Assembly (NCBI GenBank): GCA_030600605.1
Contig: JAUVLT010000002.1
Span: 259-64,258, forward strand
DNA length: 64,000 nt
Reading direction: 5' to 3'
From: Mycoplasmatota bacterium
GTDB lineage: Bacteria > Bacillota_I > Bacilli_A > Izemoplasmatales > Izemoplasmataceae
Shown: piece by piece, positions 29,447 to 47,764 of the stretch
Layout: each line of letters starts with the position of its first letter
Position numbering within the stretch: the first letter of the stretch is position 1
Program-made: the position numbers and the translations under genes
Notes under the pieces: model-generated
The model's input: the letters and a program-made list of their open reading frames with translations, nothing else
Databases searched by the model: none
What the model was told of the DNA's origin: nothing

Positions 29447-29478
29447 AAGAAAGCAGTCTTTTGCAAGACTGCTTTCTT
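29447..29478 (-). terminator. Rho-independent terminator after the esterase gene
   Basis: 14-bp stem AAGAAAGCAGTCTT/AAGACTGCTTTCTT with a TTGC loop. Overlaps the stop codon. Confidence 0.7.
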
Positions 29479-30256: not shown

Positions 30257-31939
30257 TTATTTCTTATATTTATATATTAAAGCCTCATATGGTAAAAGCT
30301 TTAATTCATTAGATAATTCTCTTTTAATATAATTATACATTATATTTTGGTATCCTGCTATATTTATATCTAAGTTAACTTTTATTTTCTTTGATTTAAA
30401 ATTAGCGAGTACTAGAAATTTCGCATTAACTGTCTCGTTAATATATGTGAAAGTATTCTCATTTTCAATATCAATAAAATGAAGAATACCGTCATTTAAC
30501 TTTTCTTCTTTTCGTAATCTTATTAATTGTTTATAGGTAGAAAATATAGAATTAATATCTGCTTGTTGTTTTTTCAAATTAATGAAAGTAGAATTTCCGT
30601 TGATATTCATCCAAGGATTAATATCGCTAAATCCAGCATACAGTGAATCATCCCATTGGAAAGGACTTCTTGCATTATCACGAGAACGATCTCTTAAAGC
30701 TTGCATTGCAATTTCGTGAGTAGCACCAAAGCTTAGAAAGTTTTCATACTCAGTATATACTTCGACATCTCTAAAGTCATTTAATTCTTTATAGTCAACA
30801 TTTGTCATTCCGATTTCTTCACCCTGATAAATTATCGGAGTGCCTGGCATCATATATAAACTATACGCAAGCATTTTCCCCGATTCAGTATGATAAACCA
30901 AATCATTCCCGTAATGACTTATGATACGTGGATGATCGTGATTATGCCAATAAATTAAATTCCAGCCATCACCATTCAACATTCTAAACCATCTGTTGAA
31001 ACTATTTTTTATATGATTAATATTTATTTTCCCTTTTGACCACTTACCAGGAGTAAGATGATTTTCACCATCGTAATCAGCCCAACAATGTCCGAAATGA
31101 ATCAACATATCAAACTCATTGCTTTCAAATCCACAATATGCCAATGCTTCTTCTTTTGTAGCTCCTCCAGCTTCTCCCATCGCCATAACATCGTGAGGAC
31201 CAAAAACTTCAATCCCAAATTCCTCTAAATACTTATGATGTTCTGGTAATCCTGAAAAGTTCTCATATCCTGGATGTCCTTCAGGAAAATCCCAATTTTT
31301 TTCTAAATGATTCGATGCATCAACTCTAAAGCCATCAACTCCTAGATTGATCCACCATTTCGCAACATTTTTCATATCTCTTTTCATATCTTGGTTATGC
31401 CAATTTAAATCCGGCATTTTCTTACTAAAAATATGAAGATAGTATTCATCAGTCGGAGGATTATATTCCCAAACAGGTCCCCCAAACCAAGAACGCCATT
31501 GAGTTGGCATTTGTCTTTCTCCATTTTTATCATATTTTGGCTTTTGCCAAATATAGTAATCATGATATTTATGATGATCTAAATGAACTGGATCTTTTGC
31601 TGCTTGAAACCACTCATGTTCATCAGAGGTATGATTTAATACAAGATCAAAGATTACTTTCATATTTTTAGAATGTGCAATTCTTATAAAATCTTTAACA
31701 TCTTCAATTGTTCCATAATCCTCACTTACTTTAAAAAAGTTAGAAATATCATAACCATTATCGTCCATTGGAGATTCATAATGAGGTGAAACCCAAATAG
31801 CTGTCACACCTAAATCACTTAAGTAATCCAATTTACTAATTAACCCCCTAAAATCTCCAATTCCATCATTATTAGAATCCTTAAAACTTCGTAAATATAT
31901 TTGATATATTATTGCGTCTTGCCACCATTTTCTTGTCAT
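30257..31939 (-). CDS. malL: GH13 oligo-1,6-glucosidase / alpha-glucosidase (cytoplasmic)
   Basis: WWQDAIIYQIY; GH13 regions DLVLNHTSDEH, GFRVDASNH, MGEAGG and YWHNHDHPR. No signal peptide. Confidence 0.9.
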   Translation of the reverse strand: MTRKWWQDAIIYQIYLRSFKDSNNDGIGDFRGLISKLDYLSDLGVTAIWVSPHYESPMDDNGYDISNFFKVSEDYGTIEDVKDFIRIAHSKNMKVIFDLVLNHTSDEHEWFQAAKDPVHLDHHKYHDYYIWQKPKYDKNGERQMPTQWRSWFGGPVWEYNPPTDEYYLHIFSKKMPDLNWHNQDMKRDMKNVAKWWINLGVDGFRVDASNHLEKNWDFPEGHPGYENFSGLPEHHKYLEEFGIEVFGPHDVMAMGEAGGATKEEALAYCGFESNEFDMLIHFGHCWADYDGENHLTPGKWSKGKININHIKNSFNRWFRMLNGDGWNLIYWHNHDHPRIISHYGNDLVYHTESGKMLAYSLYMMPGTPIIYQGEEIGMTNVDYKELNDFRDVEVYTEYENFLSFGATHEIAMQALRDRSRDNARSPFQWDDSLYAGFSDINPWMNINGNSTFINLKKQQADINSIFSTYKQLIRLRKEEKLNDGILHFIDIENENTFTYINETVNAKFLVLANFKSKKIKVNLDINIAGYQNIMYNYIKRELSNELKLLPYEALIYKYKK

Positions 31940-32218: not shown

Positions 32219-34042
32219 ATGTTGAATTACACAATTTATCATGAAGCTAAAAGTAAGTTTGCATATATGTTTGATAAAGATACTATTCATTTAAGACTTA
32301 TAACAAGTAAGGACAAAATTCATAAAATTGAAGTTATTTGTGGAGATCCTTTTTATTTTAGATTTGAAGAATTAGAAAAAGATAAATATATTATGGTGAA
32401 AGAGTATGAAACAGAAACATACAATCATTATTTTATTGCTATAAAACCCAAATACAAGAGAATGAAATATTCATTTATAATTGATGATCAATATTTATAC
32501 GGTTCTCATGAGATAATTGACATATTAGTAAATCCTAATTCAAAAAAGAACCTTTTTAACTTTTTTAATTTCCCTTACTTAAATGAGGAGGATCTTTTCA
32601 ATGCTCCATCCTGGGTTCAAGATCAAGTGTGGTATAGTATTTTCCCAGAAAGGTTTAAGAATGGAGATAGTTCAATAAACCCAGAAAACACTCTTTCTTG
32701 GGGAGAAACTGATCGTTATTCCAATAGTCAAAGATTTGGAGGAGATCTTCAAGGAATTATAGATAAACTACAATATATAAAAGATATTGGATTTACAGGT
32801 ATTTATATGACTCCAATATTTGAAGCTGACAGTTCGCATAAGTATGATACAACTAATTATTTCAAAATTGATAAGGACTTCGGTGATAATGAAAAATTTA
32901 AAGAATTAGTTGAAAAAGCTCATAATTTAGGTATTAAAGTTATGCTTGATGCTGTTTTTAACCATTCAGGGTTTAGACACCCCTTCTTTCTTGATGTAGT
33001 TAAGAATGGTAAAAAATCCAAATATTATGATTGTTTTTATATTATCAATGGCAAATTACCAGTAACTACTATTAAACTAAATGAAAATATGACAATAAAA
33101 AAAGAGAGTGCTTCTAAATATCATCACAATCCTGATCATTTAAATTACCGGACTTTTGCTTTTACACCATATATGCCAAAACTGAATACAAACAATAAAA
33201 TTATGAAAGAACATTTAATGAAAGTTACTAAATACTGGATTGAAGAATATGATATTGATGGGTGGAGATTAGATGTCAGTAATGAAGTGAGCCATCAATT
33301 TTGGCGTGAATTTAGACAAACTGTTAAAACCTTGAAAAATGACGCTTACATTGTTGGAGAAAATTGGGATAATTCAAATCCTTGGCTTCAAGGAGACCAA
33401 TACGATGGTGTAATGAATTACGAGATATTATTCCCTATTTGGAATTACTTTGGAACAAATATTGATAATAATCCCTATACAAGTACACAATTTATGTATA
33501 AAATAAATAAAGTTCTAACAGATTATCCCAAAAATGTTTTGAAAGCTTTATATAATTTAGTTGATTCCCATGACACAACAAGAATTTTAGAAATATGTTC
33601 AAATAATATTGAATTAGTTAAACTTCCGTATTTATTCTTATTCACCTTTCCCGGTGCACCAAGTATCTATTATGGTGGTGAAATAGGACTGAGTGGTAAA
33701 CACGATCCTGACAATAGAAGATGTATGGAATGGAATTCAAGTATTCAAAACAGCAAATTGCTTAATCATATCAAGAAATTAATAAAATTACGTAATGAGT
33801 ATTGTGATTTTAAAACAACTGATTTCAGATGGTTAGCAACTAATGACAAAGACAAATACATTATATACAACAAAGGAACTCTCTACTTCATAATAAACAA
33901 TAACCCTAATTCAATTACTATCTCCTTGCCACTAGAACTTTCTAACTCTAAATTCAAAGATATTTATAATGAGACATATATTGAATTTAATGACAAATTA
34001 AAGATTAACCCATTACAGTTTTATATAATAGAAAAAATATAA
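32219..34042 (+). CDS. GH13 cyclomaltodextrinase / neopullulanase / maltogenic amylase type enzyme (cytoplasmic)
   Basis: N-terminal domain typical of the CDase group; GH13 regions DAVFNHSG, GWRLDVSNE, VGENWD and LVDSHDTTR. No signal peptide. Confidence 0.88.
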   Translation: MLNYTIYHEAKSKFAYMFDKDTIHLRLITSKDKIHKIEVICGDPFYFRFEELEKDKYIMVKEYETETYNHYFIAIKPKYKRMKYSFIIDDQYLYGSHEIIDILVNPNSKKNLFNFFNFPYLNEEDLFNAPSWVQDQVWYSIFPERFKNGDSSINPENTLSWGETDRYSNSQRFGGDLQGIIDKLQYIKDIGFTGIYMTPIFEADSSHKYDTTNYFKIDKDFGDNEKFKELVEKAHNLGIKVMLDAVFNHSGFRHPFFLDVVKNGKKSKYYDCFYIINGKLPVTTIKLNENMTIKKESASKYHHNPDHLNYRTFAFTPYMPKLNTNNKIMKEHLMKVTKYWIEEYDIDGWRLDVSNEVSHQFWREFRQTVKTLKNDAYIVGENWDNSNPWLQGDQYDGVMNYEILFPIWNYFGTNIDNNPYTSTQFMYKINKVLTDYPKNVLKALYNLVDSHDTTRILEICSNNIELVKLPYLFLFTFPGAPSIYYGGEIGLSGKHDPDNRRCMEWNSSIQNSKLLNHIKKLIKLRNEYCDFKTTDFRWLATNDKDKYIIYNKGTLYFIINNNPNSITISLPLELSNSKFKDIYNETYIEFNDKLKINPLQFYIIEKI

Positions 34043-34092: not shown

Positions 34093-35259
34093 TTATTCTC
34101 CTGTAATACCTGATTTATCAATACTTTCAATAAAGTATCTTTGTACAATTCCGTACATAATAACCAAAGGCATTATTGATAACATTGTTCCTGCAAAAGC
34201 TTTTGCTTCAGTAAAATCAACATTTACAAAATCACCACCAACTGAATAATCTGCTGCGCTACCCCAAGCGGCTTGCAAGCCTTGCAATAGCATTGGAATT
34301 GTTTTGATGTTTCCATCTAAGTATATATTTGTTAAGAATAATTCATTCCAATTTACAGCGAATCCATAAGTCAATGCAATTACAAATGCTGGTACAGCCA
34401 TAGGAACAGCAATTCTAAAGAAAATACTAAGTGTATTTGCTCCATCTAAATATGCTGATTCTTCAATTTGCTTTGGCATCATTTTAAAGAATTGAAAGAA
34501 AATCAAAATGAAAAATGTTGCTTGAACTCCTTGTCCCATAAATGATGGTACCCACAAAGCAAACATTGTCCCCTTCAAACCTAAAGTACTATAAAGCTGA
34601 CTTCTAGAAATAAAGAGCAAAGTTTTTGGTAAAACATAAACCAGTAACATCAATGCTAGTATAAGTTTCTTTAATTTAAAATCAAATCTTGCAAGTCCAT
34701 AGCCAATAATTGCACTACTAAACACAGTAACTAATGTAACTGTACCTGCTACGTACAAACTATCCACATAACTTTTTGGTAAAACAAGAATAACGATAAC
34801 AATTAAACTACTAACAGCAAATAATTTCCCTTTATTTTTGAAATATATTCCCCCACCCATTACCGTAATAGGAATAATTGAAATAATAACAATTAGCTTT
34901 CTAACTTCAACCATATAAGGAGATGCAATAATCAACTCTTTATGCAAGAAAATATTAATTACCGTCTTAAAGTACGATTCATTTAGATTAAGTCCATTCA
35001 CGGCATATAAATAATTTTGGTAATAGATACTTGATGGTATCCACAATATCGTGCTATCTACTAAATCAGTATTTGACATCAGACTAATCATAAACATATA
35101 AAATATTGGATAAATAAAGACAAAAGCGAATGTAATAGATAGGAAATAAATAGCAATTTTGTATAAAACACCGTTGGCATTTCCATTACCAATTAGATGT
35201 TTCTTCCATGTTGGTATTCTATTTCTTATTTTTCTTTTAAATTCATCATATCTATTCAT
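34093..35259 (-). CDS. Carbohydrate ABC transporter permease (MalG-like) with an inserted extra hydrophobic hairpin (388 aa)
   Basis: EAA loop QIEESAYLDGANTLSIFFRIAVP. The ATG at 35257-35259 follows AAGGGAAGGG; the longer ORF-track start would overlap the upstream gene by 80 nt. About 90 extra residues with 2 hydrophobic helices sit between TM1 and the conserved core. Confidence 0.85.
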   Translation of the reverse strand: MNRYDEFKRKIRNRIPTWKKHLIGNGNANGVLYKIAIYFLSITFAFVFIYPIFYMFMISLMSNTDLVDSTILWIPSSIYYQNYLYAVNGLNLNESYFKTVINIFLHKELIIASPYMVEVRKLIVIISIIPITVMGGGIYFKNKGKLFAVSSLIVIVILVLPKSYVDSLYVAGTVTLVTVFSSAIIGYGLARFDFKLKKLILALMLLVYVLPKTLLFISRSQLYSTLGLKGTMFALWVPSFMGQGVQATFFILIFFQFFKMMPKQIEESAYLDGANTLSIFFRIAVPMAVPAFVIALTYGFAVNWNELFLTNIYLDGNIKTIPMLLQGLQAAWGSAADYSVGGDFVNVDFTEAKAFAGTMLSIMPLVIMYGIVQRYFIESIDKSGITGE

Positions 35260-35263
35260 ATTA

Positions 35264-36358
35264 TCACGCCCTTCCCTTTTTATTTGAGCGATCTCTTGTA
35301 AGTAAGAACAATAATGAAATAACAACAATTTGAAGCGATCCATATATTAATGCCATCGCAGATGCATATCCATCACGACGTGATCCATCATTCTTTGATT
35401 GCAATATTAATAAATTAATAGGATTTCCATCAAAGTTAGCTAAGAATACTACAATAAAAATAATTGAAACACTAACAGCAGGATATATCGCTGGTAAAAC
35501 TATTTTCCAAAATATACTCCAGCTGTTTGCTCCATCTATTGAAGCAGCTTCGTACAGACTCTTATCAACCTTTTGGAGCATTGCCAAGAAAATTAATATG
35601 GGCACTCCACAATACCATAGTATTTCGACGATTATTTCAAAAAGTCCAATGAATAAGTTCACAGCTAATTCCGGAATGATTGTATTAATAACATCAATAA
35701 CAAAGAAACTTAGATTTATATCCATTCCTCCATAGTTACTCATGTTTTCTAATAACTCTCCATTCAAAATAATAATTGGTAAAAAGAATATCATTCTAAA
35801 AAAGCCTTTACCCTTTATATCTTGATTTAACAACATCGCAATAATTATCGATAAAGCAATAATGACTGGAGTATAAAGTACTACTCTAGCTAAGAAGTTT
35901 TGAACTTCAAGTACAAAATCAATATCTTCAAATAAAATACGTTCAAAATTTCTTAACCCTACCCATTCATAAGTATAGTTTTGTTGGTACAAACTTACAT
36001 TATTTAAACTCATATAAACAATTCTACCAAATGGATAAAGAACTAATCCTAAGAATCCTAAGATCCATGGAGATACAAACAAATATCCTGTGATTGCTCT
36101 TTTATTAGCAAAACTTGCATTATTCCATTTATTTCTAATTATTTTTCCAATTGTCTTATCAATTACATTTTCATAAAACCATTTTGCCGGCAAGATAAAA
36201 ATATAAGATAATATTTTAATAAAGAATTTTCTTATTTCTATAAACACTTTTAATTCATACAGTTTATCAATAAATCCTACTATATTAGCTAATACTTTAA
36301 CTATGAATTCTTTTATTTTTCTAAACCCATTTACCATTATAATAATTAATTTCTTCAT
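35264..36358 (-). CDS. Carbohydrate ABC transporter permease (MalF-like) with an ~85-aa N-terminal extension (364 aa)
   Basis: EAA loop SLYEAASIDGANSWSIFWKIVLP. ATGA overlap with the upstream 771-aa gene. Confidence 0.85.
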   Translation of the reverse strand: MKKLIIIMVNGFRKIKEFIVKVLANIVGFIDKLYELKVFIEIRKFFIKILSYIFILPAKWFYENVIDKTIGKIIRNKWNNASFANKRAITGYLFVSPWILGFLGLVLYPFGRIVYMSLNNVSLYQQNYTYEWVGLRNFERILFEDIDFVLEVQNFLARVVLYTPVIIALSIIIAMLLNQDIKGKGFFRMIFFLPIIILNGELLENMSNYGGMDINLSFFVIDVINTIIPELAVNLFIGLFEIIVEILWYCGVPILIFLAMLQKVDKSLYEAASIDGANSWSIFWKIVLPAIYPAVSVSIIFIVVFLANFDGNPINLLILQSKNDGSRRDGYASAMALIYGSLQIVVISLLFLLTRDRSNKKGRA

Positions 36359-38670
36359 GATAACACCACATAACTATTCGGAGGAACCATTTCACCCATA
36401 TAAAATATTTCAACATCATTATAATTAACTAATATTTGAATAGTATTATCATATTCTACTAAGCTAACTCCTTTATCTAAGAAAATATGATTTGTCATTT
36501 CTTTGCCTATAGTAACTCCTAATCCTGGGTTTAAAAAATCATAATAATCACTGATTCTTCTTGATAAAACATCATATTGACTAATATAAACATTACTTGA
36601 ATTAGTAGTTTTTAAATCATATGTTGATCCTCCAGTAAGAATATACGAAGGAAATACTCCATATTCTACCATTCTCAATAATGATGTTGATTCATCAGAT
36701 ACAAAGTTTAAATATGGTGAATACATATCAACATATCCCCCTAACACTAATTGTAAGAAGGGAATTGATGCTGATTGAAAACTAAATTCTGACGATGATA
36801 TCGGTGCATCATAATACTCATTCACATATTTATATAAATAAGCATCCGGTAAATATATATTTGTATAAACATCATTATCTTCAAAGTATTTTAACGCTTC
36901 TATGATTTCTGACATGTTTTGTGAACTCGATACTATACCATCTTTGTAACTAGTAAATATAGCGCGATCAAATCCATTCAAAGATATTCCTTCAATATTA
37001 TACTCATTTAAATTCTTAACATCATCTTTAGCAAACTCATCATAATATCTTGTGCTTGTTACACTATGAGCATAAAACATCCAAGATAATTCAATATAGT
37101 AAATTGATCTCTTACTTAGTGTTTGAGCGTGAGATTTTGAATAATCATCATAACTTCTAACATAATCACTATAATAACTAAAAATTATATTATTTTCATC
37201 TAAAAAACTAATCATATCTTCAAAGTCATTTGATCCACCAAGTTGTCTAAAGACTTTAAATCGATAAGAATCTTCATTCATATTGTATGTTTTATATGAT
37301 GTGATTATATTCTTATATCCATCCTCTTTCATTTGAGCTAGTATTTCTGTAACTTCATTATATGTTGTTATTTCTGTTGTTTTCGCAGTTAAAATCCCTG
37401 GAGTTATTTCTGAACCAATAAAATCAACTTTTGTTGGTGTAGATGAATAAATACTTCTTCTCATATCTCCAAGTTGATCATTATCAATTAAATATTCTTG
37501 ATATGTTTTAGCAAGACCTACATAATTTGCTTCAGTACCACTCAAGAATATGTATTTTTGAACTAAATCATAATCATTTATATTTTCTTGAAAAGCAATT
37601 CTATATTGATCTTCATTTGCTCGTGATTGATATTGTTCGTATGATTCACGGTAACGATAACTAAAATAACTATTATAATAATCATTTATTAATCCCGTTG
37701 ATTTAAAATTAAATATTGCGTAATTTGCACCGGATTCACTAACAACTAAGAACCCTGTATTATCAACATCATGAACCACCCCGTAAACTGGCATAGTAAC
37801 ACGTGAAATAGGCTTAACACTCAGCGCTCTAGTTCTAAATGATTGTGACATATAACCTAAGTCAGATCCATAAACATCTAATGAAAATGATGCTTTAATA
37901 TCTGGTGATGATTCTAGTGAAATAAGTGCTCCACTTCCATCAGGTATAACAACATAACCATCTGTTTCAGATTTAGTTGAACCAAAATATGGGAAAACAA
38001 CTATATTTCTCAAAATATAGTATTGTTCTGATGAATCCCAAATATTCGGATTGTATTCCTTTATTGATTCGGCTGGAATATCAACAATCAATGTTCCATC
38101 CTCTATTGATACAATTAAATCAAATTTTATCATAATTTCTGAAAAATCAAAATCTATTTCAGCCTTAAATCCATTTGAAATATCAACAATATTAGCGGTA
38201 GCAACTCTTACATCTTTTGCCCCTTGATCATCAAATACTTCTCTTGTATCTAAATATGATTGAGATGTTGGTGTAGTTTCTTTATAAAGTTCAAGTGTTA
38301 CTCCAGACTTAATAGGATTAACAACTGAATCACTTTCCGAATAGAATCCATCAGCAAAATTATATGATGAATAAACATATCCATTAGCTTTTACTCTTAC
38401 CGCAATTGCCAGTGTTTCTTCTTCTAAGTATAACTGTAATTTATCATCTTCTGCTTTCAATTCAAAAGAAGGCGGAATCACTATATTATAAGTTAGTTCT
38501 TCTTTATTAGGAACTTCAATGTATGAGTTAGAATAGTAATCACTACTGTCTAAATCATTTCCATATCTTAACTCGTAATCAATATCCTTTGCTGATACAG
38601 TTTGAACCAACACGATTATCATTAAGATAGTTAGGGGAATAGCCCCAAGTAACAATGCTTTTTTTATCAT
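36355..38670 (-). CDS. Orphan 771-aa extracytoplasmic protein (N-terminal signal/anchor); function unknown
   Basis: MIKKALLLGAIPLTILMIIVLVQTVSA followed by a large soluble region (e.g. VIPDGSGALISLES, PVYGVVHD). ATGA overlaps on both sides. No catalytic family recognised by eye; it may correspond to a DUF family seen beside sugar ABC permeases (unverified). Confidence 0.8.
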   Translation of the reverse strand: MIKKALLLGAIPLTILMIIVLVQTVSAKDIDYELRYGNDLDSSDYYSNSYIEVPNKEELTYNIVIPPSFELKAEDDKLQLYLEEETLAIAVRVKANGYVYSSYNFADGFYSESDSVVNPIKSGVTLELYKETTPTSQSYLDTREVFDDQGAKDVRVATANIVDISNGFKAEIDFDFSEIMIKFDLIVSIEDGTLIVDIPAESIKEYNPNIWDSSEQYYILRNIVVFPYFGSTKSETDGYVVIPDGSGALISLESSPDIKASFSLDVYGSDLGYMSQSFRTRALSVKPISRVTMPVYGVVHDVDNTGFLVVSESGANYAIFNFKSTGLINDYYNSYFSYRYRESYEQYQSRANEDQYRIAFQENINDYDLVQKYIFLSGTEANYVGLAKTYQEYLIDNDQLGDMRRSIYSSTPTKVDFIGSEITPGILTAKTTEITTYNEVTEILAQMKEDGYKNIITSYKTYNMNEDSYRFKVFRQLGGSNDFEDMISFLDENNIIFSYYSDYVRSYDDYSKSHAQTLSKRSIYYIELSWMFYAHSVTSTRYYDEFAKDDVKNLNEYNIEGISLNGFDRAIFTSYKDGIVSSSQNMSEIIEALKYFEDNDVYTNIYLPDAYLYKYVNEYYDAPISSSEFSFQSASIPFLQLVLGGYVDMYSPYLNFVSDESTSLLRMVEYGVFPSYILTGGSTYDLKTTNSSNVYISQYDVLSRRISDYYDFLNPGLGVTIGKEMTNHIFLDKGVSLVEYDNTIQILVNYNDVEIFYMGEMVPPNSYVVLS

Positions 38671-41060
38671 CTTTCAAACATCTCCCTAACTATTTCAGTC
38701 GAAACAGTAAAAATTTGACTATTCAATGAGTACACAACAAAGATGAAGATTCCCATAATCAACATTGTGAACATACTTTTAAAGATAATTCCAACTGTTT
38801 CTCCTACTTCATAATTATGAATTTCTTTAATCATGAAGAAAAAGTAAATAGCTACCCATATAAAAGTGAAAGTAAATGGGACACTATAAAATACAGCTTC
38901 TTGATATGTTAAGACATTACTAATAATAATAAGTATTGGAGCAATAAATAATATTGGTGTAAAACTCATTGCAGTAGAAACATAAACATTTTTGAACGAT
39001 CCTTCTCCATCATTTATTAAACAAACAAAGTAATTAGCAATTACCCAAAGTATTAATATACTTCCTAAGATAATTAGTTCATATAAAATATTTACATTAA
39101 TTTGATCTAAGAAAATTACATTTGTTATTTTATAATACATAACAAATATTGCTGCTAATGCCAGATAAATAACACTTGCAGTCTTAACTGATACCCGCTC
39201 ATTTTGTTTTATTATATAGTACCCATCTAATGGATGTTTAATAAAAGTCGGAATATAACTTAGTTCATCAATTACTTGACTTTTTTCTCTTATCTTCGTG
39301 AATTTTTTACCAAGTATTTTAGTATAATGATATTTCTTATTAAAGAATTTTAAAATCCATCTTAAAACAATCAATCCTAATAAAGTAGCAAAAACAGTTT
39401 CAAGATTTTGTTCCATCCAATCTTGTCTTACTTGCCAATATGTATCTGATATTCCGTCTTTGTAAGATGCATAAGTATACTCAACTAAAGCTGTTTCATA
39501 ATCTTCTTGACGAACATAAGCATCTCCAAGACCAATATGAGCCAAATCAAATACAGTAGTATATTCAAGTGAATAACTCCAGTTTTCTTGTGCTAAGACC
39601 TCATCACCATCCTGATACGCTTGTAAAGCCGTATGAACTGCATCAGTAAACAATGTGGGTTCATATACTTGTAATAATTTATTACCTTGATCAATAACAA
39701 ATAGACTATCAGATGAGTTTATAGCAATACTTTTTGGTAAACTCAATAACCCTTCTCGATCAATTCCTCGATCACTGACACTGAAACTAAAGATTAATTG
39801 TCCATTTGAATTATATTCATTAATCCATCCGAATTCTTCTACCACAATTACATTACCATAATTTCCAACCCAAAGATCAACTGCACCAATCCATCCAACT
39901 GCATCTTGACTAAAATAGTTTTTACCCGATACATTAAATTTCTTTATTACATTATCTTCCAAAGTTGATGTAACAGTATAAATAAACCCCTTTTCATCAA
40001 TAGCTACACTACTGACAAAATCGACATCAATTTGTGATTCTGTTCTTAATTGTTTTTTCTGTACCTCAGTTAAAATAAGTGATCTTATTTGATCCAGTAT
40101 TGGAGTTCTAAGTGGATTACCACCAAAAAATGTTAGAAACTCTCCTTCGTAATTCAGCATTATTAGTCCATTACTAGACTGTGCTCCTACGATATACATA
40201 TTTCCTCTAGTATCAACAACTACCTTTTTAGGCGCAAAAGTATACCCTTCTTGAAATACTGGAGCTGTAGGTGTTTTTATTATTTGAATTGGTACATTTT
40301 TTTGAGCATATATAGTATGTTTCAATAATGTTTTATTATCATAATCTGCTGTTACCCAAGAAAGAATTCTACCAATCATATCGTTTTTATCTATCTTTTC
40401 AAATAGTGGTTCTTTTGTTTCATAATCTTTAAATAATATAATATCTCTACCTGAATCTGTTTGTCCTGTTATTTCAATTTCATAAACCGGAGACCCTGTA
40501 GGTGTATCAACACCACTAACATTTTTACTACTGTAAAAAAGATCACCAGTCGTCAAAGTGTCAGATAGATCAACATCATCTAGCCATAAATAGTATTGTG
40601 GAGCACGACTAAGTGCTTCCTCTCGATCAAAAATGAAGATACTTTTACGAAAACTATCTGGAACATAGATTTTATCTTCAGTTACAAAAACACTATTAAC
40701 AGCATTAAACCCATCTTTTTCTCCAACACTAGATTCAAAGTATTCAATTGTATCAATAAAATTCAAATCTTGATCAAAGATAAACACTTTCGCATGTCCA
40801 GAATCAGTAATATATACATAATCCTCATGATCTACATAAACATATTCAAGTGTCTTAAAAGCTACTCCTCCCGCATCAAGTATTTGACCTTCAGGAGTAT
40901 AAGCATCACTTGTTCTAACCCATCCATCTTCATTATCAGTTGTATATGTATAATATGGTGCTGTACTTGCTAATACACCTTTAGTAGATGAGAAAACAAC
41001 AAGTAAAATAACTGTAAAGAATAATAACATCGCTACTGCTTGGTTAACAAAACCTTTCAT
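38667..41060 (-). CDS. Fusion membrane protein: extracytoplasmic NHL-like beta-propeller plus TPR-like segment plus C-terminal Yip1-like 5-TM domain (797 aa)
   Basis: N-terminal anchor. Repeated NHL-like blades (YVYITDSGHAKVFIFDQDLNFI, IYVPDSFRKSIFIFD, MYIVGAQSSNGLIMLNYEGEF, FIYTVTSTLEDNVIKKFNVSG, LFVIDQGNKLLQVYEP). A TM at residues ~553-572 is followed by a basic loop and 5 further TM helices. Confidence 0.8.
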   Translation of the reverse strand: MKGFVNQAVAMLLFFTVILLVVFSSTKGVLASTAPYYTYTTDNEDGWVRTSDAYTPEGQILDAGGVAFKTLEYVYVDHEDYVYITDSGHAKVFIFDQDLNFIDTIEYFESSVGEKDGFNAVNSVFVTEDKIYVPDSFRKSIFIFDREEALSRAPQYYLWLDDVDLSDTLTTGDLFYSSKNVSGVDTPTGSPVYEIEITGQTDSGRDIILFKDYETKEPLFEKIDKNDMIGRILSWVTADYDNKTLLKHTIYAQKNVPIQIIKTPTAPVFQEGYTFAPKKVVVDTRGNMYIVGAQSSNGLIMLNYEGEFLTFFGGNPLRTPILDQIRSLILTEVQKKQLRTESQIDVDFVSSVAIDEKGFIYTVTSTLEDNVIKKFNVSGKNYFSQDAVGWIGAVDLWVGNYGNVIVVEEFGWINEYNSNGQLIFSFSVSDRGIDREGLLSLPKSIAINSSDSLFVIDQGNKLLQVYEPTLFTDAVHTALQAYQDGDEVLAQENWSYSLEYTTVFDLAHIGLGDAYVRQEDYETALVEYTYASYKDGISDTYWQVRQDWMEQNLETVFATLLGLIVLRWILKFFNKKYHYTKILGKKFTKIREKSQVIDELSYIPTFIKHPLDGYYIIKQNERVSVKTASVIYLALAAIFVMYYKITNVIFLDQINVNILYELIILGSILILWVIANYFVCLINDGEGSFKNVYVSTAMSFTPILFIAPILIIISNVLTYQEAVFYSVPFTFTFIWVAIYFFFMIKEIHNYEVGETVGIIFKSMFTMLIMGIFIFVVYSLNSQIFTVSTEIVREMFER

Positions 41061-41935
41061 TACTTAATACCCGAATGAGCCATTGAGGCCATTACTTTAT
41101 TTTGCATAATTATGAAAATAATTATATTTGGTATGAACATTATAAGTTGTGCGGCAGCACCAACACCGGCAGTAACTACGATGTTTCCTTGCTGACTTAT
41201 CACAGTTGACATATAAAACGGTAATGTTCTTAAAGATTCTTTATCGACAAATAAATTTGATCCCTCAGTATTAGCCCAAGCAATTTGGAAAGCTAAAATT
41301 GCTACTGTAACAATTGCTGGCTTAACTAATGGAAGGGCAATACTCCAGTAAACTCTCCAGTTACCAGCCCCATCAATTTTTGCTGCTTCAATCAATTCCT
41401 TTGGAACTGATGTATCCATAAATTGTTTGATTAAAAAGATTCCCACAGGCATAGCTAATAAAGGAATAATATGTGCAAAGTAAGTGTTATATATTCCAAT
41501 ATTAATTAAAACTAGGAAACGTGGAATCATCACAGCGATTGGAACAAACATCAAACTATATGTATTAATTTTATTTAGCACTATTTTACCTTTAAATTCT
41601 AACTTAGATAAAGCAAAGGCTGCCAAACTACTAATAATTAATGATGCAACTATCACAGCTGCAGTTGTTATTACACTATTAAAAATATATCTACTTATTG
41701 GAATACCTGATTCACTCGAAAATCTTATTAACCTTGAAAAGTTTTCAGTAGTAGGTCTTCGAACAAAAAATGTTGGTGGATATGCAAATAACTCACTAAA
41801 AGGCTTAAATGCATGATTAAAAATGAACACTATTGGTGATCCCATAAATAAAGATAATACAATTAAGAATGCATGAAATCGCCATTGATTTTTATGAAAA
41901 CGATCTGGATTAAATGTTATACCTGATTTTGCCAT
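41060..41935 (-). CDS. Carbohydrate ABC transporter permease (MalG-like, 291 aa)
   Basis: EAA loop ELIEAAKIDGAGNWRVYWSIALP; 6 TM helices. Its stop shares one base with the next start (TAATG). Confidence 0.9.
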   Translation of the reverse strand: MAKSGITFNPDRFHKNQWRFHAFLIVLSLFMGSPIVFIFNHAFKPFSELFAYPPTFFVRRPTTENFSRLIRFSSESGIPISRYIFNSVITTAAVIVASLIISSLAAFALSKLEFKGKIVLNKINTYSLMFVPIAVMIPRFLVLINIGIYNTYFAHIIPLLAMPVGIFLIKQFMDTSVPKELIEAAKIDGAGNWRVYWSIALPLVKPAIVTVAILAFQIAWANTEGSNLFVDKESLRTLPFYMSTVISQQGNIVVTAGVGAAAQLIMFIPNIIIFIIMQNKVMASMAHSGIK

Positions 41936-41940
41936 AATAT

Positions 41941-42846
41941 CTAACCCCTCTCTCCAAATAATCGATATGCTATTTTATTAAACAAAAGAACAATAACTAG
42001 TAAAATTACAGTTACTGCAGAAGCATATCCCATTTCAAATCTCGTAAACCCAAAATCATTCGCATGGTCTACGATAAGCCAGCCAGCATATTGTGGTGGG
42101 GTTCCCCCACCCGATAAAGCAGATGCCAATCCAGCAGCATTAAAAGTACCAATAATACTCATAACTGCTCCAAATAACATTTGTGGTTTTATAGATGGAA
42201 TAGTAATGTAAAATATTTCTTGCCATCTGTTTCTCATCCCATCAATCGCAGCTGCTTCATATAAACTACGATCAATATTTAAAATACCAGCGAGCATTGC
42301 TAAAAATCCAAGTCCCATACTTCCCCATAATGATACGATAATCATAATCGGAAATAGGTAATCAGCATCTTGTAAAAATTGAATTGGTGAATCAATACTA
42401 AACATATTTATTAACATACTATTGATATATCCTGTTTCATCACCACTAAAGATTATTCTCCATACAAAGGCCATCATAATTGGTCCTGTAATAGATGGTG
42501 AATAAATAATTACGGCATAAATAGTTCTAGCTTTATGTGGTACTTGTGCTAACATCCATGCAAGGAAGAAGGCCATCATATAACCAATAGGTCCAACAAC
42601 AACACTAAATAAGATAGTATTTGAAACAGCATTTTGTAAAAATACTGTATCACCTGTAAAAATATCCACATAGTTTTTTAGTCCAATAAATGTTGGTGTT
42701 TCAATTGTATTAAAAGACGTAAAACTAAGTCCCATAGCTACAAGTACTGGTAAAGCAATTACCAATATAAATAAGATAGCATAAGGTGCAATGAATAAGT
42801 AAGGTGATTGTAGTAATCTTTTAAATCCTTTACTCTTCATCATCAT
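41941..42846 (-). CDS. Carbohydrate ABC transporter permease (MalF-like, ~300 aa)
   Basis: EAA loop SLYEAAAIDGMRNRWQEIFYITIP. Three consecutive ATGs follow AGGAGGTA; the 2nd or 3rd is the more likely start. Overlaps the upstream stop. Confidence 0.9.
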   Translation of the reverse strand: MMMKSKGFKRLLQSPYLFIAPYAILFILVIALPVLVAMGLSFTSFNTIETPTFIGLKNYVDIFTGDTVFLQNAVSNTILFSVVVGPIGYMMAFFLAWMLAQVPHKARTIYAVIIYSPSITGPIMMAFVWRIIFSGDETGYINSMLINMFSIDSPIQFLQDADYLFPIMIIVSLWGSMGLGFLAMLAGILNIDRSLYEAAAIDGMRNRWQEIFYITIPSIKPQMLFGAVMSIIGTFNAAGLASALSGGGTPPQYAGWLIVDHANDFGFTRFEMGYASAVTVILLVIVLLFNKIAYRLFGERG

Positions 42847-45800
42847 TACCTCCTAGCCACAGATGAATATTCTCATAAGTAGGAACAATATATGGTTCCA
42901 CCATAACTCCATCTTCATAATATCCAAACTCAGTTAATTTTCTTTTAAGTTCCCTGTTTATAATTATAACCGCATCATCAATTGCCACACGTGGATTTAC
43001 TCCATCGTTTACAACTTTGTTCCAAGCGTTACTAAGTTCTCGTTCAAGTAAATAATCACCAGGAACTCGTCCTGTTGTTCGAACCCAGTTCCATTGTTCT
43101 AATACTTCATATTTCGAGTCACTTGGCCAAGCACTTGTTTTAAATGCTTCAATATTTGCAGTCATATACAAGAATTCATCTCCAAGTAAAGACTGAAGTT
43201 GATATGTAAAATCACTTTGTACATCTTTACTAAACCACCAAGCAAAATATTCCCATGCTAGATCTTGTTTTGATGAATCTGAAAAAATTATACTACTAGT
43301 CCCATAAGTTGGATCCCATCTTTCGATACATCTGTCACCAGTTAGTGGTCCAGGACATGTTGTTTCATCTTTATCAGTTTCAATACCAGGAATAGGCATT
43401 ACTCCCCATTGTCCCGCAAGTTCAGGAGCAGCATATTTTAATTGAATATACATATTTCCGTCCCCTATACCAAGAGGAACTTGTCCATCTCTAAACTTTT
43501 GGAAAAATCTTGATGTCGTAATTGGTACATTATAAACACTAAACAAATCTGTCATAAATTCAAATGCATCATACGATCCATCTTCATTAATAATTGTTTT
43601 ATCTCCAGTTTCATTATATAAAACTCCACCATATTGATAAATAAATGGTGTCGTTTCTCCAAATGTTTTAAAAGCATTATCTCCACCTAGTGGAGTATAA
43701 AAATAATAATTATACTTTTGCATTACAGGAATTAAACTAACTACTTCTTCCCATGTTTCAGGTGGCTCAACACCTAAAAATTCTAAAATATCTTTTCGAT
43801 AAAATAGTAATTTAACATCTTGAGTTTCAGGAATAGAATAAATTCCTCCTTCATATACAAAAGGTATAAAAGAATTTTCATTGAATTCAGCTGATAAATC
43901 ATAAAATCCATCAAATTCAGAAAGATCAGTTACTATTCCTCTTAAAGCGAATTCAAAAGGCCTTGTAACACTTAATCCCATTGCAGCATCAGGTGTAGTG
44001 CCTGCAGCATTCGCAAGAACTATTTTATTTTCATCAGGCATGACTGATAATTGAACTTTCACTCCAGTTTCTGATGTGAATTCCTCATCAATCATTCTTT
44101 GCATTACTTCAATATATAATCTTGAATTTCTAACCCATATTTCAACAGTTTCTTCATCGGTAATAGAAGCATCGTTATATTTTGGATCAAAAAACGAATA
44201 AACAAATGCTCTTATTCCTTCCCAACTTCTTATAAAAATATTGACATTAGGTTTAGGTAATTCGATATTTTCACCATGAATATAAATCGAATCTAATTGA
44301 AGTGGATTATCAATTAAGCTCGGTAATATAATATTGATACGTCCATAAATGGATGTATCTCCAACATTATATCTAGATTGATATGGTGGTATTTCATCAG
44401 GATCCTCAATAAATTGATTCATATATTTAATAGCAATATTTAATTCAGTAATTATCGCCATGTCATCAGATTCATATATTTCAATTAACTGGTTTCTACT
44501 ATCAATTATTTCGTCTCTTTGTCTAGTTAGTTCTCCTACAATATTTGGAATATAGACATCAAGTTTGTAGTTACGATATCTGTCAGTTAATCCACCAGTA
44601 ATTTTGTTAACTTCGCGTGCTAAATCATTAATATCACTTAATACTTCTACCAATTGATGGTATACATCATCAACATCTTCATTTACTGCGGTAAGCGTTA
44701 GTGAATGTGTTCCAGCTGTAAAATAAAACTCAAATGCTTCACCATCAAGATGCAATGTTTCATTTCGATAATTTCTTGAATAAGGAAAATCATAATTTTT
44801 TAAATCCTCAAACAAAATATCGCCATCAATTAATATACGGCGACTAGTTGAGAGATCTTCATTTTCACTTTGAAGATATTTTAAAGAAAGGTTATAAATA
44901 CCTGTTTCTGCAATTTCAAATATATACGTTATACTATCTCCACTCTTACGATAAGATGATTGATCTACCACATTTAAAACACGATTCTTGTAAGAATATG
45001 GTGTAAGTCCAGGATTTCTTTGAAACTTAGCTCTAATATTTTGTTTGCTTTCATATGTATATCTTTCAGCATCAATTACTAATAAAGAATCAGCTTTTGA
45101 AGAAGTTTCTAATGAAGAAAGGTATTCAGAATAACTAGGAATATCAGAAGATAGGTTTCCTATTTCTATATCCCCTAACAAAATATACCCTTCATTTATT
45201 ATAATTGATAATTCGTTTTCTCCAGCTTGTAAGAAAAATTTAAGAGGCTCATTGAAAAAATAGTTTGGATCGGATAAAGCAAAAACACTCCATTCTTGAA
45301 ATAAAGAACTATCTGGAGTTATTTCATCACCAAATCGATCAAACAGCTTTTCTGAATCAACTTCCCACTTTAATGGTATTTCTAAATTGTACATTTCATT
45401 ATATTGAACAATATCATTTACTTTAAATGTAAGTGTTGGTCTAAGTAATGTTTCTTCTAATAGATAATAATTTAAATATAACTCATAAAGTCCCTCTTCA
45501 GACACATTTACTGTAAAAGTGATTTCATCTTTAGGAGTAACTTTTATTGTCTCACGATTATATCCTCGACTATAATAAGGCGAGATTTCTTCTCCTCCCA
45601 CTATATCTTCAACATTAATTAAATAAACATCACTAGGTGATAAAATGTTTAATTCTTGCCAATAATTATAAACACCATAGTAATTATTACTTTCGTCATA
45701 TCCTTCTAAATAAGCAGAACTAGAATCAACAATACTTTCAAACTTAACATTTGCTACTTCTTCTAAAATACTATTAGCGCTTGCCACGTTATGAAAATGT

Positions 45801-45865
45801 GACAACACTTTGTCTCCGAATATCAATGAAAATAATAGAACAATTATTAAAATTTTTCTATACAT
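42830..45865 (-). CDS. Giant extracellular solute-binding protein: two CBM-like beta-sandwich modules plus helical linker plus family-1 SBP domain (1011 aa)
   Basis: Signal peptide without a lipobox Cys. Two ~200-aa modules show CBM6/35-like patterns (EGLYELYLNYY..., TGIYNLSLKYLQ...). The C-terminal ~450 aa are SBP-like (VEIWVRNS..., PDAAMGLS..., WGVMPIPG). Confidence 0.8.
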   Translation of the reverse strand: MYRKILIIVLLFSLIFGDKVLSHFHNVASANSILEEVANVKFESIVDSSSAYLEGYDESNNYYGVYNYWQELNILSPSDVYLINVEDIVGGEEISPYYSRGYNRETIKVTPKDEITFTVNVSEEGLYELYLNYYLLEETLLRPTLTFKVNDIVQYNEMYNLEIPLKWEVDSEKLFDRFGDEITPDSSLFQEWSVFALSDPNYFFNEPLKFFLQAGENELSIIINEGYILLGDIEIGNLSSDIPSYSEYLSSLETSSKADSLLVIDAERYTYESKQNIRAKFQRNPGLTPYSYKNRVLNVVDQSSYRKSGDSITYIFEIAETGIYNLSLKYLQSENEDLSTSRRILIDGDILFEDLKNYDFPYSRNYRNETLHLDGEAFEFYFTAGTHSLTLTAVNEDVDDVYHQLVEVLSDINDLAREVNKITGGLTDRYRNYKLDVYIPNIVGELTRQRDEIIDSRNQLIEIYESDDMAIITELNIAIKYMNQFIEDPDEIPPYQSRYNVGDTSIYGRINIILPSLIDNPLQLDSIYIHGENIELPKPNVNIFIRSWEGIRAFVYSFFDPKYNDASITDEETVEIWVRNSRLYIEVMQRMIDEEFTSETGVKVQLSVMPDENKIVLANAAGTTPDAAMGLSVTRPFEFALRGIVTDLSEFDGFYDLSAEFNENSFIPFVYEGGIYSIPETQDVKLLFYRKDILEFLGVEPPETWEEVVSLIPVMQKYNYYFYTPLGGDNAFKTFGETTPFIYQYGGVLYNETGDKTIINEDGSYDAFEFMTDLFSVYNVPITTSRFFQKFRDGQVPLGIGDGNMYIQLKYAAPELAGQWGVMPIPGIETDKDETTCPGPLTGDRCIERWDPTYGTSSIIFSDSSKQDLAWEYFAWWFSKDVQSDFTYQLQSLLGDEFLYMTANIEAFKTSAWPSDSKYEVLEQWNWVRTTGRVPGDYLLERELSNAWNKVVNDGVNPRVAIDDAVIIINRELKRKLTEFGYYEDGVMVEPYIVPTYENIHLWLGGNDDEE

Positions 45866-45946: not shown

Positions 45947-47764
45947 TTATTTATTTACGCCAATGTAGTATTGTAAATATCTTACAATTTCTTCATTTAA
46001 TGTTAATTCTCTTTCTGGTGCAATGTCAACCCAGCTTAAACTCTCATCTCTCATTTCATCCTTAATACTCCAAGGATCAAATGCATTTGCTACTGACGCG
46101 AACGCCGGTATTTGACGTGGATAAGGGTTTGCATTTGACATTTGATACTGGAACGCTACGTTTCGGAATGCATCAAAATTATAACGAGCCAATACTGAAT
46201 TACTATCAAATCCTTTTACTAGTGGATGCATTGCCATAACTGCAGGATTACTAGTAATTGGCCATCCTTGAATATAATCCATTAAATATAAAGTTCCATC
46301 TGTAAAGCTAACAGGATCAGCAGCATAAACCATGTCCCATCTACTTTCGAGACCTTCTTCACCAAATGTTAACCATTTAACTAATTGGAATGCAGCTTCT
46401 GCTTTTACTCTATCTTCTTCTAGTACTTTTGAAATACTATAATAATCATGATAAGTATAAGTAGCAGTTTGTCCACCTTCAGGTGCAATTGGATAAGGAT
46501 AAATATCAATTGTTTGTCCTTTATCTACCATTGTATTAACAGATGCATTGAATGCCCATAAGTAAATTGTGTTAATTGCACGTACACCATCTGTCCATGA
46601 ATCAGTTACATCTGGACAAAGTGTTTCGCGATCTGCTTCAAGTAAATCATAGAAATGCCATCCTTGTTTTGCTTCTGTAGCAACACTTTCAAGCCAAGCT
46701 CCATAATTAGTAGCATTAGCAAAATCAAATCTTTGTGTAATAGTGTTATATCCTTTATATCCATTTGGGACACTATCGAAATAATTAGAACCTTGAATTG
46801 AAAAATCAATTACACCAGGGAATACACATTGCCCTGCGTTAGTGATTAATCCAACTTCATTACGGATTTCTTCATATTCAGCATATGTCCAATCGTATGA
46901 TGGAGCATCAATACCAAGAGTTTCTAATAAGCCTGTATTAACAGCTACAATTGGTCCAACACCTTGCCATGGGATACCCCACATTTCAAGGTTATCATAA
47001 GTCATCATACCAGATACTGCATTTGGTGTAATGAATTGAGCTTCTTCATCAGTTTTAATGTATGGCCATAAATCAATAGTCATACCTTTATCATATGTTT
47101 CAGCGCCTTTAGGATTGAAGAAAATATCAGGTAAAGTTCCTTCTAATAATGCGTTTTCTTGAATTAACAATAAACCATCATCACCATTTTCCCAACCACT
47201 TGAGTAAAGTGGATTACGAGTTACATTTATATTTGGATATTTTTCCATGAACTCAAGAACATTTTTCCAAATAGCGTTATCTTCATCAACGTCACCATAA
47301 TAGCTGAATCCCATTTCTAAATCAATAGTATCCACTTGCCAATCTGGTGTTCCATCACTGTTCTTATCCACATTGTAAATTGTACCTTCATATAGTTCAC
47401 GGGCTTTATCAAGTTCTGTTTTACAAATATCTTGTGTAGGATCTTCTTCACAAGTTAAAGCCAGTACTACCAAAATAACATTTAAACTTACTTTGAATCC
47501 AGAATCATCAGTAGCACTAAGTACAATGTCATATTCACCGATAGTAGTTAAATCGTAACTACCAGTGATTTTTACATCAACAGCATTTCCATCTTTATCC
47601 ACAGCTGAAATTCCTTCTAAAGAAATTCCAGATGCATTTAGTTTCACTTCTAATGTTCCATTTTCTACAATACCAGCAATCGTTGGAGGTGTAGTATCTG
47701 TGCTACACCCAACAAACACAATTGCAAATACCATAGTAACGGCAATTAATAATATTTTTCTCAT
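45947..47764 (-). CDS. Lipoprotein solute-binding protein with N-terminal Ig-like (DUF5011-like) module and Cys-loop linker (605 aa)
   Basis: Lipobox-like AIVFVGC; Ig-like module (GEYDIVLSATDDSGF); CEEDPTQDIC; then an SBP family-1-like region. The RBS AGGAGGTAA lies directly after the upstream stop. Confidence 0.8.
   Translation of the reverse strand: MRKILLIAVTMVFAIVFVGCSTDTTPPTIAGIVENGTLEVKLNASGISLEGISAVDKDGNAVDVKITGSYDLTTIGEYDIVLSATDDSGFKVSLNVILVVLALTCEEDPTQDICKTELDKARELYEGTIYNVDKNSDGTPDWQVDTIDLEMGFSYYGDVDEDNAIWKNVLEFMEKYPNINVTRNPLYSSGWENGDDGLLLIQENALLEGTLPDIFFNPKGAETYDKGMTIDLWPYIKTDEEAQFITPNAVSGMMTYDNLEMWGIPWQGVGPIVAVNTGLLETLGIDAPSYDWTYAEYEEIRNEVGLITNAGQCVFPGVIDFSIQGSNYFDSVPNGYKGYNTITQRFDFANATNYGAWLESVATEAKQGWHFYDLLEADRETLCPDVTDSWTDGVRAINTIYLWAFNASVNTMVDKGQTIDIYPYPIAPEGGQTATYTYHDYYSISKVLEEDRVKAEAAFQLVKWLTFGEEGLESRWDMVYAADPVSFTDGTLYLMDYIQGWPITSNPAVMAMHPLVKGFDSNSVLARYNFDAFRNVAFQYQMSNANPYPRQIPAFASVANAFDPWSIKDEMRDESLSWVDIAPERELTLNEEIVRYLQYYIGVNK

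Follow-up and report, generated by a model that had tools for sequence, protein, structure and literature searches.

The minus strand of a 64,000-nucleotide stretch from a Mycoplasmatota bacterium of the order Izemoplasmatales (assembly GCA_030600605.1, contig JAUVLT010000002.1, positions 259 to 64,258; hereafter the window) encodes at 38667..41060 a membrane protein of 797 aa plus stop codon, in which an NHL beta-propeller, a TPR-like helical segment and a Yip1-type membrane domain are joined. This NHL-TPR-Yip1 protein is proposed, with a probability of roughly 0.55, to be a dedicated and stoichiometric accessory subunit, acting in scaffolding or assembly, of a multi-component ATP-binding cassette (ABC) system for glycan import. 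An accessory or scaffold role appears well supported by gene context, as the position of the gene within its cassette does not vary across about 160 loci, which come from several bacterial classes. The family as such already has a name in RefSeq; its fixed seat in a seven-gene importer cassette, next to a partner resembling glycoside hydrolase family 129 (GH129) and together with duplicated permeases, appears undescribed.

Ten genes follow one another on the minus strand of the window. They encode a pullulanase (53388-56525), a surface protein of 1783 aa (47781-53132), a lipoprotein-type protein of 605 aa resembling a solute-binding protein (SBP; 45947..47764), an SBP of 1011 aa (42830..45865), permeases of 301 aa (41941..42846) and 291 aa (41060..41935), NHL-TPR-Yip1, a DUF5696 protein of 771 aa (36355..38670) and two permease-like proteins of 364 aa (35264..36358) and 416 aa (34093..35343). 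The order was examined by comparing the window proteins, using tblastn, with 82 loci (79 + 3) recovered via NHL-TPR-Yip1. All loci of sufficient length showed the succession giant SBP (about 1000 aa), permease, permease, NHL-TPR-Yip1, DUF5696 and a second pair of permeases, in hosts including Bacilli, Lachnospiraceae, Izemoplasmatales, Haloplasma and one Thermotogota metagenome-assembled genome (MAG). Relative to this core, the second SBP-like gene is placed upstream in some loci and downstream in others. When the search was started in reverse from two distant DUF5696 proteins (27-30% identity), both were found in the same cassette. Among 80 metagenome loci found by DUF5696 patterns, NHL-TPR-Yip1 is directly upstream in 53 of the 53 with upstream room; the ten loci without it all lacked such room, and 17 short loci still include its 3' end. 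Genomes with two cassettes carry one NHL-TPR-Yip1 gene per cassette, as in Paenibacillus thermotolerans (loci L010 and L017), Izemoplasma sp. B36 (L040 and L044) and a Haloplasma MAG (L008 and L046).

The genes are also tightly packed. In the window, the upstream permease gene ends in a stop codon that has one base in common with the ATG of NHL-TPR-Yip1 (TAATG), and at the other end the NHL-TPR-Yip1 stop codon and the DUF5696 start codon overlap (ATGA). The latter arrangement is general: in 99% of 77 loci these two codons either overlap or are within 10 bp of each other; by the same measure the figure is 93% for the junction of DUF5696 with the following permease and 72% for that of the SBP with the first permease. 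A preliminary description of this DNA, made from the letters and their open reading frames, had placed the gene beside permeases and SBPs and had suggested that the propeller could bind glycan chains or dock surface enzymes and SBPs, with the Yip1 domain tethering them to the permeases. The neighbours it named are indeed there, but the DUF5696 partner, the second permease pair and the existence of a conserved cassette with varying flanking enzymes had escaped it. The suggested tie to the adjacent importer is strongly supported by the fixed gene order and the overlapping start and stop codons, from which physical contact is still a matter of inference.

Conservation and co-variation were compared across 58 loci with all seven genes intact. 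In the first permease pair, 33-35% of positions are conserved at 90% or above and the median pairwise identity is 59-62%. The corresponding values are 9% and 37% for NHL-TPR-Yip1, 13% and 37% for the giant SBP, and 6.5% and 29% for DUF5696. Pairwise identities of NHL-TPR-Yip1 correlate with those of DUF5696 at r=0.98 and of the giant SBP at r=0.97, followed by the first permease pair (0.93-0.94) and the second (0.82-0.85). The members of the second pair correlate with each other at r=0.96 and with the other five genes at 0.79-0.85. This pattern suggests that the three large ectoproteins, NHL-TPR-Yip1, DUF5696 and the giant SBP, may be evolving as a set. Within NHL-TPR-Yip1, the TPR and stalk segment (residues 469-554) has the highest share of positions conserved at 90% or above (19%), compared with 12% in the propeller and 7% in the membrane part. 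A single run in the membrane part reaches conservation in 95% or more of the sequences, namely DGEG (residues 684-687), and the loop that contains it is predicted to be cytoplasmic.

The family is large and widely distributed. A first homology search yielded 88 clusters. MAGs of Izemoplasmatales type (Candidatus Izimaplasma HR2, Xianfuyuplasma) encode full-length homologues with 60-76% identity, and homologues from Paenibacillus, Vallitalea, Bacillus relatives and Haloplasma share 46-49%, the protein of Haloplasma contractile itself being 39% identical. Such names as these proteins bear are "YIP1 family protein", the one used in RefSeq, and "hypothetical protein". A scan with one genome per GTDB species found relatives in the genomes of at least 469 species, spread over Bacilli, Lachnospiraceae, Izemoplasmatales and Haloplasma; MAGs of Lachnospiraceae, Butyrivibrio and Acetatifactor were numerous among the matches listed, which also included a single MAG from the Thermotogota. 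In an exhaustive profile search of 1.84 billion representatives at 50% identity, 2,816 matches were obtained at E <= 1e-30, and about 145 of the best 150 were single-stretch, full-length matches of 640-850 aa. Cassettes were found on human-gut metagenome contigs as well, and Lachnospiraceae MAGs of rumen, caecal and faecal origin are among the carriers. When the Yip1 region alone (residues 594-797) was used to query the large protein database for free-standing proteins of the YknW kind, the only matches were six fragments belonging to the family itself.

The domain architecture was derived from hydropathy, profile searches and an AlphaFold2 model built from the family alignment, with a mean predicted local distance difference test (pLDDT) of 82.9 and a predicted TM-score (pTM) of 0.65. 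Seven hydrophobic segments are present (residues 8-26, 555-573, 623-645, 662-680, 700-718, 726-744 and 758-776). The predicted topology begins with a signal or anchor at the N terminus and continues with an external part of about 528 residues (27-554), a transmembrane (TM) helix, a basic cytoplasmic linker and five TM helices ending with the C terminus outside. The 49-residue loop that follows the second hydrophobic segment (residues 574-622) contains 11 lysine or arginine residues, and the predicted outward loops contain none. The N-terminal segment (residues 8-26, 40983..41039; Kyte-Doolittle mean 2.49) coincides with a model helix at 2-29 and may be a signal peptide or an uncleaved anchor. 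An antisense open reading frame of 125 aa on the plus strand (40596-40973) sits within well-conserved coding region and is almost certainly spurious. Base composition is about 29% G+C, which, taken with the nearest relatives, points to a host among wall-less Bacilli resembling Izemoplasmatales.

The propeller occupies residues 31-468 approximately (39657..40970) and is predicted to face outward. For the window protein searched singly, Pfam NHL matches residues 439-466 (E=3.6e-4, 20.9 bits, cut-off 20) and the SBBP propeller repeat is matched too; among 36 aligned family members, NHL is found in 35 (best 7.2e-20). A family profile run against the sequences of the Protein Data Bank (PDB) matches the designed Pizza proteins (1e-39), TRIM3 (4e-19) and the extracellular domain of PknD. 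In the model, six four-stranded blades are seen between residues 38 and 468, and Foldseek against the PDB ranks the six-bladed NHL domains of TRIM71 and TRIM2 first (E 3e-13, target TM-score 0.72-0.76). Blade 2 harbours a beta-rich insertion of about 105 residues (150-255, 40296..40613) that contains seven model strands at pLDDT 52-84 and has no match in Pfam. It is limited to the Izemoplasmatales-type forms of about 795 aa and corresponds to a clean gap in all homologues of 660-730 aa. A scan against NCBIfam returned only a meaningless partial match, to ScyF, with 28 bits where the cut-off is 350.

Two TPR-like helical hairpins follow at residues 469-533 (39462..39656), formed in the model by helices 470-483, 487-500, 505-517 and 521-531. 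No TPR match was found in Pfam for the window sequence searched singly; TPR_16 is matched by 17 of the 36 family members, and the family profile matches consensus TPR proteins in the PDB with E-values of 5e-20 to 1e-10 at positions equivalent to residues 470-531 approximately. One continuous model helix, residues 534-577 (39330..39461), is predicted to form a stalk that runs into TM2, for which hydropathy peaks at 555-573. The cytoplasmic linker rich in lysine (residues 578-622, 39195..39329) is modelled as short helices between 579 and 620. It leads to the predicted Yip1-type bundle of five TM helices (residues 623-797, 38670..39194), which appears in the model as five long helices reaching to the C terminus. 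Pfam Yip1 (PF04893) matches residues 609-772 of the lone sequence over 166 of 173 model positions with E 7.6e-6 and 26.3 bits, the cut-off being 28.6. Relatives score 35-53 bits, and all 36 aligned family members match (best 1.8e-14); Yip1 membership is secure at the family level. No solved structure of Yip1 type was found in the PDB by sequence or profile search. Pfam, PDB profile search, AlphaFold2 model and Foldseek are concordant on the architecture of NHL propeller, TPR and five-TM Yip1 domain.

Most of the preliminary description of the protein agrees with these data. It had placed the open reading frame exactly, had estimated the extracytoplasmic part after the anchor at about 520 residues (528 by hydropathy), and had described the TPR-like stretch, the TM helix with a positive-inside loop and the five further TM helices of Yip1 type, all of which were recovered. 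The peptides it cited are located at residues 81-96 (YVYITDSGHAKVFIFD), 453-467 (LFVIDQGNKLLQVYE) and 510-531 (GLGDAYVRQEDYETALVEYTYA). Its NHL assignment was borne out, with the blade count of "at least five" now raised to six in the model, and its account of the ectodomain needs only the addition of the blade 2 insertion, which it had not separated from the propeller. It had also named Pfam searches and a comparison of an AlphaFold model with Foldseek as checks. NHL scored above the Pfam cut-off, Yip1 fell just below it for the lone sequence and was recovered in all 36 aligned family members, and NHL domains of known structure headed the Foldseek ranking.

If NHL-TPR-Yip1 is an accessory subunit of the importer, the Yip1 bundle would pack laterally against the permease helices, in the manner of YknW in YknWXYZ. 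The stalk, TPR hairpins and propeller would then form a platform outside the cell that holds DUF5696, the giant SBP or both over the translocators, and oligosaccharides would thereby be processed and captured at the pore. The ATPase would be provided from elsewhere in the genome. Importer ATPases of Firmicutes are often shared and encoded apart from the permeases, as are those of the MsmX/MsmK type. A structural role fits better than a substrate-specific one because the core is conserved while the flanking carbohydrate-active enzymes (CAZymes) change. An extension of this proposal, in which the seven-gene unit is an undescribed Gram-positive glycan-import supercomplex with NHL-TPR-Yip1 as the hub joining two translocators to a surface processing or handling protein, is put forward tentatively and is considerably less probable.

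Several points weigh against an accessory subunit. Correlated divergence and synteny are no proof of contact because both are expected of genes inherited as one unit, and the cassette genes have a common history while differing in rate. The pTM of 0.65 means that the relative orientation of the domains in the model is uncertain. The YknW precedent is a MacB-type exporter with a membrane-fusion protein, which is other than a type I importer. No ABC ATPase (ABC_tran) was found among the 33 of 50 window open reading frames (at least 120 aa) that were scanned against Pfam. Finally, no fusion of NHL-TPR-Yip1 with a permease, an SBP or DUF5696 was found among the longer representatives (P0253, P0309, P0322, P0350 and P0238). 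These contain Yip1, NHL, TPR and SGL-propeller domains only, and their extra length is attributed to insertions because no partner domain was seen in them.

The propeller could instead be the functional head of the protein, a surface glycan binder or an enzyme of lyase, lactonase or esterase type, with the Yip1 domain as a mere anchor. The protein is encoded in a glycan-utilisation locus, the clade-specific insertion at 150-255 could be a carbohydrate-binding addition, some family members show weak matches to SGL/gluconolactonase, strictosidine-synthase-like and arylesterase propellers, and virginiamycin B lyase appears at rank 28 of the Foldseek matches (E 8e-10). Such weak enzyme-family matches are, however, common to any six-bladed fold of NHL type. 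Most of the invariant propeller residues lie at structural positions of the NHL consensus (Y-V-x-D, strand ends), no conserved set of histidine, cysteine or metal ligands is evident in the alignment, and the propeller is conserved across cassettes with unrelated CAZymes (GH13, GH66, GH15 and GH130), which would be unexpected for a substrate-specific binder or enzyme. A five-helix bundle with an invariant DGEG loop also goes far beyond the needs of an anchor. A functional head of this kind is considered unlikely, though it is the best placed of the alternatives.

Less probable again is a sensor or gate, in which the external propeller would sense substrate or the state of the envelope and the Yip1 domain would regulate the activity or assembly of the two translocators. 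The NHL domain of PknD is thought to act as a sensor. The family profile matches that domain (1rwi, E 2.8e-17), and the DGEG motif lies in a predicted cytoplasmic loop. YknW, too, has been described as modulating complex assembly (PMC4887032). Against this, no signalling output domain is recognisable in Pfam and NCBIfam scans of the protein, and regulators at other loci are separate and ordinary: a histidine kinase with an AraC-type response regulator in the Paenibacillus locus L001, and LacI or AraC types in the Vallitalea locus L003. No regulator gene was recognised in the window cassette. Tight translational coupling to a structural ectoprotein is a better fit for a stoichiometric subunit than for a regulator. 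That the gene is a functionally unrelated neighbour, present by chance or hitch-hiking, can be practically dismissed in view of its invariant position at so many loci, the overlapping start and stop codons and the presence of one copy per cassette.

The closest functional parallel to an accessory subunit, and one that the preliminary description had cited correctly, is YknW of Bacillus subtilis/B. amyloliquefaciens, which belongs to the Yip1 family and modulates the assembly of the YknXYZ ABC exporter (PMC4887032). Both proteins have a five-TM domain of Yip1 type, both genes lie within operons for ABC transporters, and a role similar in kind is proposed for NHL-TPR-Yip1. YknW, however, is a small stand-alone Yip1 protein that serves YknYZ, an exporter of MacB type, and its membrane-fusion protein YknX, whereas the cassette protein carries an external propeller and TPR part of about 530 residues and accompanies a type I importer with SBPs, two permease pairs and a GH129-like protein. 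No gene of MacB/FtsX or HlyD type was found among the cassette and flanking open reading frames scanned (34093-59716). The proposed likeness to YknW is thus a loose one, limited to a Yip1 protein serving as accessory to an ABC transporter. Bacteriocin clusters are another setting in which Yip1-family proteins are repeatedly encoded next to ABC exporters (PMC10707071). These proteins, for example BawG, likewise have five TM helices and are encoded beside ABC transporter components, but they measure about 220 aa, lack an ectodomain and occur in exporter or immunity contexts. To our knowledge, none of them has been shown to work with importers.

At the level of single domains, Mycobacterium tuberculosis PknD resembles the cassette protein in its external six-bladed NHL propeller tethered by a TM helix, but there the propeller is joined to a cytoplasmic kinase. 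TRIM2, TRIM3 and TRIM71 have the same six-bladed fold in cytosolic ubiquitin ligases that bind RNA or protein. Compared with all of these, the cassette protein has a Yip1 membrane domain, a beta-rich insert in the propeller and two TPR hairpins after it. Eukaryotic Yip1/YIPF proteins share PF04893, the five TM helices, the cytoplasmic N-terminal side and the external or lumenal C terminus; they differ in acting in trafficking between endoplasmic reticulum and Golgi, in having a cytosolic N-terminal domain, and in having neither propeller nor transporter context. The cassette itself resembles CUT1-type importers of Firmicutes (MalEFG/MsmEFG-like) in its EAA-motif permease pair, its SBPs anchored by lipid or TM helix, the lack of an ATPase gene in the operon and the adjoining glycoside hydrolases. 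A canonical CUT1 system has one permease pair, one SBP of about 420 aa and no extra membrane subunit, whereas the cassette adds a second permease pair, an SBP of 1000 aa, DUF5696 and NHL-TPR-Yip1 in fixed order. Should the hub proposal be true, its counterpart, in logic and not in ancestry, would be the Sus-type "utilisome" of Bacteroidetes.

Searches of the literature, which mostly exclude subscription journals, found nothing on this cassette or on a Yip1 subunit of an ABC importer. Queries for "YIP1 family protein" returned papers on eukaryotes, bacteriocins and YknW only, and none joined Yip1 with polysaccharide utilization and an ABC transporter. DUF5696 (PF18952) had no mention in the literature searched, which covers few papers from subscription journals. 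Neither a Yip1-type component nor DUF5696 is mentioned in a recent paper that deals with a binding protein for cycloisomaltooligosaccharide (PMC13084667).

The four permease-like proteins of the window cassette all match BPD_transp_1 and all four keep the EAA-x3-G...LP coupling-loop motif, which is located at residue 197 in the 301-aa MalF-like permease, residue 183 in the 291-aa MalG-like permease, residue 270 in the 364-aa protein and, as ESA/EAA, residue 295 in the 416-aa protein. Two full transmembrane pairs are encoded, since the 364-aa protein resembles the 301-aa permease (29% identity) and is MalF-like, while the 416-aa protein resembles the 291-aa permease (22% identity) and is MalG-like. 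As annotated, the 416-aa open reading frame has an overlap of 80 nt with the adjacent gene; translation probably begins at Met29 instead (about 35259). The giant SBP has its SBP domain at residues 588-886 (SBP_bac_1, E 5e-28) and is present in all cassettes. Canonical sugar SBPs measure about 420 aa. At about 1000 aa in all lineages, the cassette SBP includes an N-terminal extension of about 580 residues with no significant Pfam match and a sub-threshold hit to Golvesin_C only. The second SBP-like protein shows a weak SBP_bac_1 match, an Ig-like domain and a lipobox-like VFVGC motif of lipoprotein type.

The DUF5696 protein, assigned by Pfam with E 3e-133, has an N-terminal membrane anchor and no sequence match in the PDB; its family profile gives a weak GH129 match there (E 8e-4). 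Its AlphaFold2 model is of high confidence, with pLDDT 88.9 and pTM 0.88. By Foldseek, the best structures are GH129 enzymes, namely the 3,6-anhydro-D-galactosidase of Zobellia (5opq, E 4e-29) and the alpha-N-acetylgalactosaminidase of Bifidobacterium (5wzr, about 1e-24), with TM-scores of 0.58-0.73 and followed by GH101, GH36 and GH31. The model thus predicts a three-domain fold like that of GH129, GH101 and GH36, composed of an N-terminal beta-domain, a (beta/alpha)8 barrel and a C-terminal beta-domain. The conserved acidic residues comprise E205, D244, which forms part of an invariant PDGSG motif, E312, D368, E421 and E669. The best-conserved block, residues 199-314 with the PDGSG motif, precedes the predicted barrel. 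DUF5696 may be non-catalytic or may use a different site.

The enzymes that flank the cassette vary between hosts. In the window, four GH13 enzymes are present: the pullulanase, a protein resembling oligo-1,6-glucosidase (30257-31939), a cyclomaltodextrinase/neopullulanase-type enzyme with an N-terminal Ig-like domain (32219-34042, plus strand) and a Big_2-GH13 amylase (56675-58888, plus strand). A putative esterase lies at 29477-30247, and a transposase of the IS110/IS116/IS902 family near the window end (62950-63801, minus strand). From the pullulanase and the three other GH13 enzymes, the cargo of the window cassette is likely to be alpha-glucan oligosaccharides from starch or pullulan. Elsewhere the cassette adjoins GH66 in Paenibacillus (L001, 1649-3433), GH15 in Vallitalea (L003, 948-1994), or GH130 and giant Ig-like surface proteins on contigs of Acholeplasmataceae type. 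Since the flanking enzymes vary while the core is constant, the core cassette is viewed as a general module for different glycan-specific enzyme sets. The cassettes adjoining GH66 and GH15 are the closest ones outside Izemoplasma (46-49% identity). Enzymes of these two families are used to make cyclic and linear isomalto-oligosaccharides, and the cassettes of this clade may import large alpha-1,6/alpha-1,4 glucan oligosaccharides.

Two observations concern the large surface proteins. In the window, the 1783-aa protein and the pullulanase each start with an N-terminal signal and finish in a TM helix that bears a short basic tail, a way of anchoring in keeping with a host that lacks a wall. On the unrelated contigs L083-L086, cassettes are likewise flanked by giant proteins (1,380-1,710 aa) with many Ig-like domains.

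Gram-positive carbohydrate ABC importers are usually drawn with one SBP, two permeases and a shared ATPase, and the cassette adds four fixed components to that picture. At the level of folds there is no surprise. Should NHL-TPR-Yip1 turn out to serve only as a passive anchor, or as an accessory of minor weight, what is left would be a correct domain annotation. If the hub proposal were true, NHL-TPR-Yip1 would be the first Yip1-family subunit of an ABC importer, and in tying surface glycan handling to two translocators it would extend the role of bacterial Yip1 proteins beyond the single exporter case of YknW. It would also explain the very common annotation "YIP1 family protein" and would reveal a new principle by which Firmicutes organise the uptake of oligosaccharides, one that is open to experiment. 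The protein is in any case a common, conserved and experimentally tractable part of Gram-positive glycan uptake loci, those of gut Lachnospiraceae included.

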